This document shows, piece by piece, positions 20,915-26,590 of a DNA stretch of 64,000 nt. The position numbers and the translations under genes are program-made. Each line of letters begins with the position of its first letter. Position 1 is the stretch's first letter. The DNA is from a virus. Location of the stretch: the IMG/VR virus record IMGVR_UViG_3300037400_003528, positions 1 to 64,000 of that record. The stretch is one strand, 5' to 3'. The notes beneath the pieces are model-generated. The model did no database searches. It was not told the origin of the DNA and saw nothing but the letters and a program-made list of their open reading frames with translations.

Positions 20915-21730
20915 TCAAATTAATATTATATTTTTATCACTTAATACTTTACCTAATTCTATAATTCTATCACAAATTTTACAAGAATTATTATCTATTA
21001 AACATTTTCTTTGACAACGTAATCTATATTGTCCAAATTCAGGGATTAATGTTTTATTATCTTCCTCTCCTTCATAATTGATAATAATTTCTTTTAATTT
21101 ACCAAGCCATTTATGTTTTATACTATATACTTCGTATAATACATTATAATTAGTATTTTTATCGTATGGCATAAATTCAAAAGTATCTATATAATTAGAA
21201 TATAAGGGTATATCTTCTGGTCTAATAAAAAAATTTTTTATAGATGGAATTGATTGCCATTTTTGTTCACAAAAATTACAAATACATCGCAATTGAATAT
21301 TATTTTTTTTTGCTATTTCTTTTGTAAATTCAAGCAGAAATGCTAAGTTTCCGCCAATTCTGATGTCTGTTATGTTTAAAGAACAAAATCCAAGCAAATC
21401 TTCCCAATCACAGCAAATATATTGATAATAATGAGGAATATTATATTTATTTAAATCTTCTTCTACAACTTGGTCATAAGTAGGCATTCTTACTACTAAA
21501 TCTACATCTGGATATTTTTGAAGAAGAACTTGAATAATTTTATAATCATTTAAAATGAAACCTCCTTTTTTATCTTCTTCCTCTCCAAAAGCTATAATAA
21601 TTCTATAATCTTTATATTGATTAATAAAATTATCTAATTTTTTTATATCTGGTTTATAATTAATAAGAATCTAAATTTTATCTTTATCAAAGTATTTAAA
21701 ATTCCTATAAAATGGTATCTAAAATTTCAT
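20915..21730 (-). CDS. hypothetical Cys-rich protein, 271 codons with 2 in-frame TAG in the N-terminal extension (standard-code ORF was 190 aa)
   Basis: frame stays open upstream of M(21487) through two TAGs to ATG 21730; overlaps the end of the upstream gene. Confidence 0.45.
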
Positions 21731-22385
21731 TCTAATCCTATCCTCTCTATTCTCGGAATCCTGAAAAATCAATAATAATAGGATGGTTATTTTTATATCC
21801 TACATTATCATAAGTTAAATCATCATCCCATTTAAGTTTTTTAATTAAAGCAAGGAATTCTTTAAACTTTTTTGGCCCATAATATTCTAATAAATCTATA
21901 CACCAATCACTATTTAAATCATTCCAACAATTAATTTTATATAAAAAAGAATCCATTAATTTTCTTTTTTCTTTTGTTTTTTTATATGAATTATTATAGG
22001 GGATACATTTTTCTTGAAGGTAAATAGGATAATCATTAACATAACCAATAAAGATAGTTTCTGCAAAACAATCTTTAAAAGAAGTAGAACAAATATCATA
22101 ATATCGTTCTACTTCTACATTACAGTAATCCCATTCATAATTATCATTTGCGCCAATAAAACTACAAAAAGTGTCTTCATAATATCCCTGAAACGGAATT
22201 TTTATAACATAGTCTTTATTGCGTGGCATAATTACAAGTTTTGTTGCTCCGAAATCATAATTAAAAATATATCCCTTGTCAAAAAGATATAAAGTTAATT
22301 CATCTACTCTTGTATCGTCAAAAGTAGGGTTTAAAAAATTGAAACCTTCAAACATATCGAGAATTTCATTTTTATCAAACGTCAT
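21696..22385 (-). CDS. hypothetical W/Y/C-rich protein; C-terminal 17 codons contain 4 TAG
   Basis: ORF 21747-22385 ends at TAG and continues in-frame to TAA 21696. Confidence 0.45.
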
Positions 22386-22419
22386 GTTATAATATTCTCC
22401 TTATATTTTTATATTTTTA

Positions 22420-22472
22420 TTATAACAAAAAAAAATAAAAAAGTCAAAAAGATTCTATAAAGAATAGCTTTT
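22420..22472 (-). terminator. rho-independent terminator after gene 22486-23346
   Basis: aaagtcaaaaag..ctttttgactt hairpin followed by T-run on the minus strand. Confidence 0.55.
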
Positions 22473-22485
22473 TGACTTTTAGTAT

Positions 22486-23346: not shown

Positions 23347-23365
23347 ATTTTTCTCCTTTTAATTA

Positions 23366-23590
23366 TTAAAAACTATTAAAAACTCGTTCTACTTCTCTCT
23401 TAATTTCATTCTTTTCTTTTGAAGAAAGATTGTAAAGAGAAAGTCCATGTTTCTTTAAAATTGTTTCTTGAATTCTCCCGTTTATATTGTAACCTTTTCG
23501 AGTATATGAAATAAAATCTTTAATTGCGGAATTAAGACGACGTTTTCTATCATCTTGTTCTGTCATGTAAGCTATATAAGACATATCCAT
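23366..23590 (-). CDS. hypothetical small protein
   Basis: ORF track. Confidence 0.45.
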   Translation of the reverse strand: MDMSYIAYMTEQDDRKRRLNSAIKDFISYTRKGYNINGRIQETILKKHGLSLYNLSSKEKNEIKREVERVFNSF

Positions 23591-23693
23591 TTTTATTTTT
23601 TAATTCCTTTCTTTCCTTATCTTTATATATATTATATAAAAAATTTTAAAAAAAATAAAGGGAATGCCCTTATAAAGTACATTCCCTTTATTT

Positions 23694-24956
23694 TTATTTT
23701 TTGGTTGTAACATTAATTTTTCCATTTTTAATATGGAAAAATATATCTCCATTTTCCCAATTACGATAAACCTTTCCGCCTACAGCTTCTACTTTTTTGC
23801 GGCTTCCGCCTCTTCCTGATCCTTCTTTATGATGGTAATTAGAAAAAGCATATTTAGGTTTAATTGCTTGCATTAATTTATTATTTATTGCATTTCCATC
23901 TCCGTGCCATTGTAATTTAAATATATCCGCTTTAAGATTTGGGATAGCTTGAACCATTAAATTATTAGCAGGATTACTCATGTCTCCGGCAGAATGAAAA
24001 ATAATTCCATCTAAATTAAAACGAGTAGCCATAGATTCATTATTTACAAAAATATGGTCATCATGTTTTGAAAGTTTGTTAGCAGGAGCAATATAAGCAC
24101 AATTACCTTTAATATCTCCAATTACAAAATTATCCCCTGGTTTTAAATAACGGTGATTTGAAATTTTTGCTGCTTGTCTACGTAATTTATTTCCATAGCC
24201 TTTTTGGTATTTATCTAATTCTGTACAATCTGGTAAATAAAGCCATTTTATAGGAAAAGCTTTTGCAATTTTACTTAATCCGCCATAATGGTCTCCATGC
24301 GCATGGGAGATAAATATTACATCAATTTGTTTTACACCTTGTTTTTTTAATTCTTCGATAACAACATTGCTAGCTGTATCTTTTGCGCAGTCAATTAAAA
24401 TACATTTTTCTATTGTGCCGTCTTTTGCATATTGATATATTGCAGTACAATCTCCATATTCATTTTCATTCTTTTTAAAAAAATGTACTGCATGAATACA
24501 AAACTCTTTTGTTTCTTTTTGTGGCTATTTTGATTTAGAATCAAGAATTTCATTTACTTTCTATTGAACTTTTTTAGGATCATATCCACAGAATTTTAAT
24601 AATAATTCTCTAACATCCTATTTATCAAAATTATTATTAATTACATCTTTTGCTACTTTTTCTAAAGTTTTACCGCGCATTGAATAAATTAAATTAATTT
24701 GAGATTGAACCTTATCTCTCCATCTATCTAATTTTTGTATACGTTCAATATTATTTCCGTAATGTCCTGCTATACAAGCTACCGCTAAATATTTATGTTC
24801 AATACTACTAGCAAGACACTTATTAACTTCTTGTTGAATCTATTTAGCATTATCTTTACCAAATTTTTTAATTAAATTATTCTAACGCTATTCTCGAACT
24901 CCATATAATCCTAATAGCACATCTGAAACAGCTAATATTAATTCTAATCTTTTCAT
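23694..24956 (-). CDS. metallo-beta-lactamase-fold protein (HAHGDHYGG motif) with N-terminal domain containing 6 in-frame TAG; ATGA overlap with the upstream gene
   Basis: single frame from ATG 24956 to stop 23694 if TAG is sense; HxHxDH motif translated. Confidence 0.55.
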
Positions 24957-26590
24957 AAGTTTACGTCCTTTGCAATATAATAACCTGTTATTTTATTAGT
25001 TGTACAGAAATTTATAATACGTTTTATTAAATTTTCATCTAAAGTATATTCAAAAAGGAAAGTTTCAAAATGATGTTTAGTAAGTTGTTTTATATAATTT
25101 TTATATTCATTGTGCATTTCTTTCTTTTGTTCTCCAAATTTTCCTTTTCCGCTATAATCTTTAATAAGTGAATATACTTCTTCTTGAGTAACGCCATTTA
25201 CAGAATCAAGACCTTTATATTTAGGGTCTGTCTCCATAAACTTTTCAAAAAACTACATTCCGCCGTTAACCATCACATAACCGCCAATAGTTTTAATAGA
25301 TTTTAATACAGATAAACAAGCATTATACATAGCAGTAGATTTATTATACTCATAAACATCAAGATTATCCAACCACCATCCATCAAATCCTTGCTATTTA
25401 TATCTTTTGGCTTCAGAAATAAGATGATCCCGCCAAGCATATTTTCTTACATCAACATACCATTCATCTTCCCAATCTTCCAATTGCTGTAAATTAAGAT
25501 CTTTATATTTATTAAACCATGAACGAGGTTTCTCATTAGTTCCAAGAGAAAGATATGCAAGGGCCTTATAGCCTCTTTCTCTAATTACTTGAACCTCTTT
25601 TGATGAATAAAGTTCAGGTTCAAGTACAATAATTCCTGATTTAGTTTTTGGTAAATCAATTGCTTTGACTTTTGTAGAAAGATAAATCAGATAATTACTT
25701 TGAGAGATTGTAACGGGCGATTTTGAATTCAATTTTTCATTAACAATTTTTTGAATCTTATCCGCATTATAGCCATTAAAATTAAGAAGAAACTCTCTTA
25801 CAGTATTATTACCATAAAGACCTTTAATTACATCTTCTGCCGTAGCATCATTAGTTTTCTTGCTTAAAACAGCAATTGAATTAATTTTCTTCTGTACATC
25901 ATCAGCGTATTTTCCAAGTCTTCCTTTTCTATATTCAGCTTTTCCTGCGTGTTTTGCAATCGTATATACAGCCAGATCGAAAATAATTAAATCCTTATTG
26001 TTGGTAATACGTGTTACTTCTTTCTGAATAGCATCAGAATTTTTTTGTCCAAAAACAGAAAGATAATGTGTTCTAGTATTGCCTGTTCCAAAAGTTCCAA
26101 GAAAAGTTTCTGCTGCTAGAATAGTTACTTGTAAATCATTAAATTCTGGTACTGTTGTAAATTTAGGTCTTACATAACCCGCAATATAACTACTGTGGGC
26201 AGAACGTTTACGTCTATAACATCCAGTCTTTTTCCCAGAAGGTGTATAATTACCAGATATATCAAGATTATCACCTAAAGCAGCTTCTGTATGATTTGTT
26301 TTACCATTTCTCGCAAAAACAATAATATCTCCAGGTAGGATACCTTTTGATCCTTCATGCCAAATTCCGGCCTTTTTAGCATTTTTTACAAGTGGTACAT
26401 TATTATTGGCATAACCGCCAATTGCATTAATATCTCCTGCTTTATAAAAAACAGCACTCATTGTGCATGTGCATCCTGCGGGCTTCCCACAGCCATGTCC
26501 ATGTTCTTTTAAAATTTTCGCCACATCTTCATTCACTGTTGGCGAACCATCGAAATATTTGATTGCATTATACCAATCCCATATATTCAT
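24953..26590 (-). CDS. CHAP-domain peptidase fused to GH114-like glycoside hydrolase (GFDGWWLDNLDVYE), 545 codons with 2 in-frame TAG; candidate cell-wall/exopolysaccharide hydrolase (lysin)
   Basis: ORFs 25394-26590 and 24953-25237 share a frame interrupted only by TAGs; CHAP Cys..His motif near N-terminus. Confidence 0.6.

Follow-up and report, generated by a model that had tools for sequence, protein, structure and literature searches.

TAG codons in a lysis gene pair amid TAG-free neighbours in a cow-rumen phage that probably reads TAG as glutamine

Gut and rumen phages that carry suppressor tRNAs have been described by Borges et al. (bioRxiv 10.1101/2021.08.26.457843); in the part of that text consulted here, recoding affects the structural and lysis genes and leaves the early genes in the standard code, modules in the alternative code lie dispersed through the genomes of the Jade, Sapphire, Agate and Lak clades, and a lysis-timing hypothesis is already proposed. 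Metaproteomic data have validated code 15 for crAss-like phages, according to the available part of a second report (PMC9523058), and phAss-1, a gut phage of about 136 kb for which the name Phassvirus is proposed, has TAG in 41 open reading frames (ORFs) together with suppressor tRNA genes (PMC10607447). The present analysis concerns a stretch of viral DNA of 64,000 nucleotides (nt), positions 1 to 64,000 of the IMG/VR record IMGVR_UViG_3300037400_003528, which is called the window throughout, and centres on a minus-strand pair of genes, a cell-wall hydrolase (the lysin) and a metallo-beta-lactamase-fold (MBL) enzyme, that contain in-frame TAG codons amid same-strand genes that are free of them.

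The window, which has a guanine-plus-cytosine (GC) content of about 31%, is probably part of a cow-rumen phage of about 145 kb that reads TAG as a sense codon, most probably for glutamine (Gln; code 15), by means of its own tRNA(CUA), and in which TAG-containing late genes are opposed to TAG-free early genes, the lysin and MBL genes belonging to the late class. Close relatives of the region around the pair (20915-26590) occur with identical gene order on 144.5-kb contigs from the cow-rumen metagenomes of PRJEB21624. More than 100 related contigs were recovered, the more distant relatives being viral contigs of about 120-195 kb with 53-71% identity in a gene for a protein of 808 amino acids (aa) that adjoins the lysin. 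When 20-32 kb was compared by megablast with 50,697 phage records, no match was obtained, and the 808-aa gene, in a tblastn search, matched solely three unannotated huge-phage records (LR756500, LR756501 and LR756503; 462-735 kb), with about 40% identity to their ORFs. Homologues of the lysin, of the MBL protein, or of the 229-aa or 271-aa frames described below stand beside the 808-aa gene in just 4-6 of 49 loci, and since synteny around that gene is so quickly lost, a family-wide test on the same genes is not possible.

In-frame TAG codons and the genes that contain them

The features on which the argument turns are given here with window coordinates, strand and evidence.
24953-26590, minus strand: cell-wall hydrolase of 545 aa with a weak CHAP-like N-terminal domain, a CW_7 repeat and a GH114 domain (Pfam, PDB, homologues)
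23694-24956, minus strand: protein of 420 aa with a CW_7 repeat and a metallo-beta-lactamase-fold enzyme domain (Pfam, homologues)
22486-23590, minus strand: two TAG-free genes of 286 aa and 74 aa, between the TAG-containing pairs
21747-22385, minus strand: 212-aa gene ending on TAG (homologue ends)
20915-21730, minus strand: 271-aa TIM-barrel protein with a C-terminal four-Cys motif (orthologues, structure model)
11689-12231, minus strand: 180-aa conserved protein in the tRNA array (related loci)
11091-11167, minus strand: suppressor tRNA with anticodon CUA (ARAGORN; Rfam tRNA, 53.4 bits; sequence)
53688-61289, plus strand: TAG-rich late block used as the reference class, with TAG at 25-52% of Gln-type codons (PHROG matches)

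Reading frames under code 15 were defined with TAA and TGA as the sole stops, and TAG, CAA and CAG were counted together as Gln-type codons. A previous examination of the letters alone (the sequence-only reading) had reported 2, 4, 6, 2 and 1 in-frame TAGs in 20915-21730, 21696-22385, 23694-24956, 24953-26590 and 11689-12231, and these counts and coordinates are exact; its description of the remaining minus strand as nearly free of TAG is likewise borne out, since the 33 other genes of that strand contain 6123 codons, 172 of them CAA or CAG, and no in-frame TAG at all, with 127 TAGs in the +1 frame and 96 in the +2 frame (223 out of frame). TAG use in the window is bimodal: the late plus-strand genes hold 93 in-frame TAGs, the portal gene included, which amount to 38% of their Gln-type codons, and at that rate the probability of finding none among 172 is about 1e-36. 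The reading frame after an out-of-frame TAG stays open for a median of 11 codons, and frames of 146-276 codons such as those that follow the TAGs of the lysin, MBL, 271-aa and 180-aa genes are matched after at most 0.4% of out-of-frame TAGs. TAG is the terminator of one of the 55 genes with a correctly read stop codon.

It had further been proposed that five genes stay open only if TAG is sense. This holds for the lysin, MBL, 271-aa and 180-aa genes, in which homology or a confident fold extends through the TAGs, but fails for 21696-22385, the homologues of which end at residue 212. Nor are the four genes at 20915-26590 consecutive, as had been stated, because the TAG-free genes at 22486-23346 and 23366-23590 separate them into two pairs. 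The standard-code ORF list does split or shorten the genes in the manner reported, giving 398 aa (25394-26590) and 94 aa (24953-25237) for the lysin, the last 112 aa for the MBL gene and 190 aa for the 271-aa gene, and standard-code gene callers split or shorten the lysis genes of this widespread rumen phage family.

The lysin has TAG at codon 399 (25396-25394) and codon 446 (25255-25253). Its Pfam GH114 match, which scores 52.6 bits against a cut-off of 27 and covers residues 318-422, spans TAG399; solved GH114 chains in the PDB match residues 321-421, full-length homologues align through to the last residue of the protein, and in the relative P0004 the lysin is cut exactly at codon 446. The CHAP half of the earlier label “CHAP+GH114” is weak, the Pfam match (E=0.046) falling short of the curated cut-off, and has some support from the endolysin family phrog_9589 on residues 38-152. 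The CW_7 repeat scores 55.3 bits in Pfam and also matches the Cpl-7 lysozyme chain 5i8l. The two components looked for in an endolysin, a cell-wall-cleaving catalytic domain (GH114) and a cell-wall-binding module (CW_7), are both present; GH114 is not, to our knowledge, a classical peptidoglycan hydrolase family, so the substrate of the lysin is uncertain.

The lysin is also a recent recombinant, formed from the lysin of a standard-code phage and a resident TAG-recoded lysin. Three genes were compared, those at 24953-26590 of the window, at 2925-4577 of L001 (a standard-code phage contig that carries an integrase gene and lacks in-frame TAG) and at 10001-11650 of the close relative L003. Residues 1-400 of the window lysin are 90-100% identical to the L001 lysin in each 50-aa block, the last 145 or so residues are about 95% identical to the L003 lysin, and the lysin as a whole is 77% identical to that of L003 between flanking genes that are 94-98% identical; it is this block-wise switch, together with the low identity between conserved flanks, that reveals the recombination. 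TAG399, which adjoins the junction, corresponds to CAG in L001 (the donor type); at codon 446, L003 has TAG and L001 has GAA. The mosaic shows that lysis modules are exchanged between phages of different genetic codes.

The MBL gene has TAG at codons 23, 25, 39, 113, 132 and 144. Pfam places Lactamase_B at residues 183-242 and CW_7 at 99-138, with two TAGs inside the CW_7 match, and the protein aligns from residue 1 to CHAP-CW_7-MBL fusion proteins. A standard-code frame opened at the first start past the last TAG covers 112 aa and lacks the HxHxDH motif, which lies upstream of any standard-code start codon. L003 keeps all six TAGs and adds two at codons that are AAA and CAA in the window. Among solved chains the closest are the MBL (nuclease) domain of ComEC and the pneumococcal teichoic-acid phosphorylcholine esterase CbpE; because of the CW_7 repeat and the frequent fusion of homologous MBL domains to CHAP and GH114 domains, the protein is most likely a wall-polymer phosphodiesterase, a role that is predicted from sequence resemblance.

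The 271-aa gene has TAG at codon 4 (21721-21719) and codon 20 (21673-21671), and its orthologues (42-60% identity) share an MKF-x-IPF start. In a structure model with a mean confidence (pLDDT) of 90.5, residues 2-6 and 19-24 form strands of the TIM barrel, so that the gene cannot start downstream of its TAGs. The model is that of a generic TIM barrel, without a specific family; the four C-terminal cysteines are invariant, and L003 has a further TAG where the window has GAA. The 180-aa gene has a single TAG at codon 20 (12174-12172), with no in-frame Met past it, and nearly all of its 80 related loci align from residue 1. Searches of Pfam and PHROGs with the 271-aa, 212-aa and 180-aa proteins gave no match.

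The frame 21696-22385 (229 aa) was rejected as a recoded gene, since it is complete in the standard code as the sole TAG-ended gene in the per-gene table. Its homologues end at aligned residue 212, with TAA or TGA in L005 and L006 and with TAG in L047 and L023, so the first TAG is a real stop; all four TAGs lie in a 17-codon tail past residue 212 (the three further ones included) that is conserved only in the near-identical L003, and a 16-codon open tail after a TAG has a chance frequency of 38%. A sigma-70-like promoter, TTGACT-17-TGnTATAAT, lies ahead of the 212-aa gene at 22447-22419. The TAG stop itself lies 16 nt before the ATG of the 271-aa gene (21696-21749, minus strand); suppression could lead to readthrough of the four TAGs, across the 271-aa start, to the TAA at 21698-21696, and could in this way link downstream translation to the code switch.

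The plus-strand block that serves as reference contains a portal gene (phrog_2739 at 4e-73; 13 TAGs), with other head and packaging genes from 53.7 kb on, which is why it is taken as a late module. Its other TAG-containing members are a sigma-factor-like gene at 53688-54809 (phrog_5767 at 1e-45; 13 in-frame TAGs), a 403-aa gene (21), a 590-aa gene (19), a 101-aa DUF2726-like gene (3) and a gene for a 451-aa protein (9). Should the sigma-factor-like gene drive late transcription, it would itself need the suppressor tRNA in order to be translated. Elsewhere on the plus strand, an isolated 253-aa gene at 33703-34464, which lies between minus-strand blocks with several inverted repeats ahead of it and matched no PHROG family, has seven TAGs and the highest TAG share in the window (54% of Gln-type codons). 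A 154-aa ORF with six TAGs at 51745-52209 was considered as a missed recoded gene and set aside, as it overlaps better standard-code ORFs in other frames, and treating TGA or TAA as sense improved no ORF anywhere in 31-54 kb.

Upstream elements, lysis cassettes of relatives and the timing of lysis

Five elements outside the coding sequences bear on how the lysin and MBL genes are classed.
26692-26708, minus strand: 17-nt motif AGGACAAAATAAAATAA, directly after the stop of the preceding 93-aa gene, about 100 nt ahead of the lysin ATG
26625-26655, minus strand: 14-bp hairpin followed by a T-rich run (terminator scan; fold z-score -3.2), conserved in L003 and L004
23658-23671, minus strand: terminator-like hairpin and T-run just past the MBL stop codon (terminator scan)
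323-339, plus strand: second motif copy, followed by a 17-bp hairpin (z-score -6.2), upstream of the gene 438-881 (3 TAGs)
57754-57770, plus strand: third motif copy, followed by a hairpin, upstream of the gene 57958-58263 (3 TAGs; weak DUF2726 nuclease-like match)

The pattern AGGACAAAATWAAATAA has exactly three matches in the 64 kb, against an expectation of 0.43 even with two mismatches allowed, and all three copies lie upstream of TAG-containing genes. The motif, which has the general form (A/T)GGACAAAAT(A/T)AA(A/T)TAA, stands directly past an upstream stop codon and is followed after 20-40 nt by a strong hairpin of variable sequence, then by a ribosome-binding site and the TAG-containing gene; the strong hairpin was present in all five cases that were folded (the three window copies, L008 and L016). 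Ahead of the lysin, the hairpin at 26625-26655 lies between the motif and the ribosome-binding site and could be a terminator or attenuator, and the lysin and MBL genes together are bracketed by the terminator-like hairpins at 26655-26625 and 23671-23658. Since the pair shares motif and hairpin with two TAG-containing plus-strand genes, it is assigned to the late class despite its position on the “early” strand, and the combination of motif and hairpin is a candidate cis element for late-gene control.

Related motif copies stand ahead of the lysis cassettes of L003, L004, L008, L013, L016 and L041. In the last four (at L008:15880, L013:15730, L016:16757 and L041:12144) the motif and hairpin are followed by a non-homologous cassette in which sequence inspection shows a 90-aa protein in which hydrophobic stretches accompany the holin-typical motif DPTTAG(I/L)(T/S)DS, and a large second protein that has a glucosaminidase-type motif and, over its whole length, 7-17 TAGs. 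Across five endolysin matches in relatives, TAG accounts for 46 of 167 Gln-type codons (28%), with 5-17 TAGs in the aligned part, whereas the genes next door are free of it: there is no TAG among 106 Gln codons in 18 orthologues of RNase H or among 259 in 26 orthologues of GyrB, and the 808-aa gene adjoining the lysin is TAG-free in 47 of 47 orthologues. A TAG-coded lysis cassette amid TAG-free genes of the same strand is thus a recurring feature of the family, even where the lysins are not homologous.

The proposal of the sequence-only reading that TAG marks expression class rather than strand is accordingly supported by the bimodal TAG use by functional class, by the motif and hairpins and, best of all, by comparison with the recurrent cassettes of relatives. 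Under this interpretation, genes needed before tRNA(CUA) builds up (the neighbours in the tRNA array, the vault-like 808-aa protein and the nucleases) would avoid TAG entirely, and in genes translated later TAG would serve as a normal codon for Gln; the lysin and MBL genes (26590-23694) would form a separate hairpin-bounded unit inserted in a TAG-free block of the same strand. Without suppression the MBL protein would end at codon 23, the 271-aa TIM-barrel protein at codon 4, and the lysin at codon 399, after its CHAP-like and CW_7 parts, while the 212-aa gene upstream of the TIM-barrel gene would simply terminate on its TAG. A stronger version is unlikely but can be formulated: the lysis cassettes would be under a double lock, consisting of the 17-nt element with its terminator-like hairpin (as a late promoter or a lambda-like antitermination site) and of the TAGs, and imported standard-code lysin modules would be actively re-coded on arrival, as in the change from CAG to TAG at codon 399. 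If this were true, recoding would be re-imposed on newly acquired lysis genes and not only inherited.

Several observations weigh against the assignment of TAG-containing genes to a late class or against a timing of lysis by TAG. Sigma-70-like extended -10 promoters are found both at the TAG-rich operon at 53688 and at TAG-free genes, so that a transcriptional split into early and late is not evident, and instead of being a late promoter the motif could belong to the 3' ends of the genes that precede it. Two head-module genes at 61299-63028 (plus strand; 207 aa and 378 aa) contain no TAG; the match here is to phrog_4088, possibly the major capsid protein, and late genes that are expressed very strongly may do without the recoded codon. 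No holin was found beside the lysin, its 93-aa, 74-aa and 63-aa neighbours having no hydrophobic segment where inspected, and the window has no homologue of the relatives' holin. The TAGs of the lysin are few and lie near its C-terminus. TAG is absent from 42 of the 78 sequences of the 271-aa gene (the window copy included) and sporadic in orthologues of the 180-aa gene, where codon 20 in 78 readable loci is GAA or GAG in 52, TAG in 9, CAG or CAA in 8 and AAG in 4. The affinities of the suppressor tRNA, described in the next section, belong with these points.

The idea that TAG content times lysis is weak for the lysin of the window, because with its first TAG at codon 399 a 398-aa product with the CHAP-like and CW_7 parts would still be made without suppression. 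One of the five genes named in the sequence-only reading is, besides, simply terminated by TAG. The alternative that fares best is that TAG is passively tolerated, as a third Gln codon that drifts into genes translated while the suppressor is present, with lysis timed by a holin or by transcription. The sporadic occurrence of TAG in orthologues and the position of the first lysin TAG are what such drift would produce, TAGs are distributed within genes like CAA and CAG (Kolmogorov-Smirnov p=0.64), the first 400 lysin residues are free of TAG and nearly identical to those of a standard-code lysin, and a placement of TAGs as an N-terminal “gate” over all TAG-containing genes of the window is not significant; the lack of an adjoining holin has also been counted in its favour. 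Drift alone accounts less readily for the TAGs at codons 4-39 of the MBL and 271-aa genes, for the presence in every close 271-aa orthologue of one or more TAGs among codons 1-20, at varying positions, for the fact that in the wider 271-aa family about half of all TAGs fall there, at several independent positions, or for the many TAGs in the endolysins of relatives, and lysis genes are significantly biased to recoded codons in two other lineages, according to the consulted part of the text of Borges et al. (bioRxiv 10.1101/2021.08.26.457843). With the positional and orthologue evidence thus mixed, passive tolerance is a serious rival, tenable although not the favoured account.

An explanation by ancestry rather than expression class, in which the lysin and MBL genes are a recently inserted mobile module that retains the coding habit of a donor phage, is considerably harder to sustain. 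It is true that the cassette, together with SprT-like and 93-aa genes, is absent at the matching position in the syntenic L005 and L006, and that the lysin, both in its recombinant make-up and in its low identity to that of L003, differs from its flanks in history. The part of the lysin that derives from a standard-code phage, however, has no TAG except at codon 399, next to the junction, where the CAG of L001 indicates a new change from CAG to TAG inside the recoded phage; the additional TAGs of L003 in the MBL and 271-aa genes, at the AAA, CAA and GAA of the window, are likewise gains, and the non-homologous lysis cassettes of relatives are equally enriched in TAG. An inherited coding habit is on these grounds improbable.

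The amino acid read at TAG

The tRNA(CUA) lies within the TAG-free tRNA array and is one of 29 tRNA genes found by ARAGORN, every one of them on the minus strand. It has an ordinary cloverleaf with a U1-A72 pair, an 11-nt D-loop, a 5-nt variable loop and an encoded CCA end. At 1460 TAG sites in the code-15 ORFs of related loci, glutamine is enriched 6.3-fold among the aligned residues and lysine and glutamate 2.8-fold each, with no enrichment of D, R, Y, L or S, so that glutamine fits better than glutamate, lysine or a purely mutational model; between relatives TAG is replaced by CAG, CAA, GAA and AAA. TAG is therefore most probably read as glutamine, a conclusion drawn from aligned residues.

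That TAG is sense but stands for glutamate, for lysine or, following the ARAGORN label, for pyrrolysine is very improbable, although the tRNA itself gives this view some footing. Among about 1000 tRNAs of the related loci its nearest non-suppressor relatives are tRNA-Glu(UUC) genes, it is unlike the probable tRNA-Gln(UUG) of the window at 19347-19416, and its isotype by nearest neighbours is ambiguous, with tRNA-Glu closest; glutamate and lysine are each enriched opposite TAG as well, and most relatives have Glu at codon 20 of the 180-aa gene. The enrichment of glutamine is nevertheless by far the highest, and neither D, as would be expected for glutamate, nor R, as would be expected for lysine, is enriched. 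U1-A72 is also commoner in the tRNA-Gln of the family, where U stands first in 21 of 28, than in tRNA-Glu (11 of 51). We infer that tRNA(CUA) is charged with glutamine. A pylT has a short D-loop and a 3-nt variable loop and is accompanied by pylS and pylBCD genes. The dimensions of the D-loop and variable loop of tRNA(CUA) differ from these and fit the general tRNA model, a scan of the annotated ORFs that was not exhaustive found no pyl genes, and the “Pyl” label of ARAGORN merely mirrors the CUA anticodon; pyrrolysine decoding was rejected.

Finally, the suggestion that the TAGs are true stops in genes broken by pseudogenization or assembly error, which is correct for the end of 21747-22385, is effectively refuted for the other genes by homology through the TAGs to native C-termini and a confident fold that includes the residues around them, by the conservation of TAGs in independent assemblies, by open frames after TAG far beyond chance length, and by the number of in-frame TAGs in late genes, the portal gene among them.

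Two tRNA-like genes missed by ARAGORN were found by Rfam on the minus strand, at 15523-15591 and at 19347-19416, the latter of which has a UUG anticodon loop (hence the probable assignment to tRNA-Gln) and scores weakly, at 32.5 bits. Flanked by a small ORF and the suppressor tRNA, at about 11300-11420 (minus strand), lie about 120 nt of GC-rich sequence that have a T-arm-like end and no Rfam match at the gathering threshold and may represent a structured RNA.

Other features of the window and comparison with known systems

The tRNA array also contains a full-length ROOL RNA at 14887-15483 (minus strand; RF03087, 279 bits against a gathering score of 99), and among its tRNA genes are TAG-free endonuclease genes at 7942-8370, 10091-10729 and 12548-13174 (minus strand) of the PD-(D/E)XK type (PDDEXK_5, one copy with NUMOD1) and the HNH type, which are likely to be homing endonucleases. 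The 808-aa protein (27634-30060, minus strand) has major-vault-protein shoulder, vault repeat and SPFH domains, and the occurrence of a vault-like protein and a ROOL RNA in one phage may deserve separate study. A DUF2828/DUF7788/vWA protein is encoded at 3978-5540 (minus strand). At 48085-48362 four to five tandem units of 44 nt form long imperfect palindromes with arms of 47-55 nt, which look like iterons or an origin of replication.

Between about 35800 and 47000 there are few long ORFs on either strand under any stop reassignment, and the GC content is higher (0.36-0.40). A repeated cassette in this region comprises seven near-consensus plus-strand promoters (TTGACA-17-TGGTATAAT), each followed within about 10 nt by a GC-rich perfect hairpin, the arms of which co-vary between copies; the minus strand has consensus promoters that face the opposite way and paralogous small genes with an unusually high GC content at third codon positions (0.42-0.63). 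An Rfam E-value scan of the region gave no match, and the units may be a convergent sense/antisense or small-RNA gene array.

In phage lambda, late control involves the promoter PR', the terminator tR' and the antiterminator Q, with the lysis cassette downstream among the genes controlled. The window resembles this arrangement in having a short conserved element and a strong terminator-like hairpin directly upstream of lysis genes, a likeness in apparent working only, and differs from it in that no Q-like antiterminator was identified and the promoter role of the motif is putative. The phage phAss-1 (PMC10607447) is similar in size, in its TAG-containing ORFs and in its suppressor tRNA, and there is no DNA similarity to the window in the phage collection. 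The crAss-like code-15 phages, as far as the available part of the report describes them (PMC9523058), read TAG as glutamine in a standard-code host, as is probable here, but belong to a different phage order, infect Bacteroidota and have peptide support, while the present case is known from sequence alone.

The closest likeness is to the phages of Borges et al. (bioRxiv 10.1101/2021.08.26.457843; Lak, crAss-like, Jade, Sapphire and Agate), which in the part of the text consulted share with the window a phage-encoded suppressor tRNA, standard-code replication or early genes, recoded structural and lysis genes, low GC, depletion of the recoded codon as a terminator and an origin in the cattle-rumen datasets of PRJEB21624. 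The phage family of the window differs from those described there in being marked by the vault-like 808-aa protein, with genomes of about 120-195 kb, and none of the release-factor or aminoacyl-tRNA-synthetase genes of their “code change module” was seen in the window. The available part of the same text mentions neither a motif and hairpin upstream of lysis cassettes nor a lysin that is a recombinant with that of a standard-code phage. The phenomenon is the published model of Borges et al., recognized in a further phage family, and no new principle is established; what is added is the motif and hairpin element, the mosaic lysin across a code boundary and the TAG-terminated 212-aa gene. The recurrence of the same TAG pattern on one strand in lysins that are not homologous supports the published idea that recoding follows expression class.

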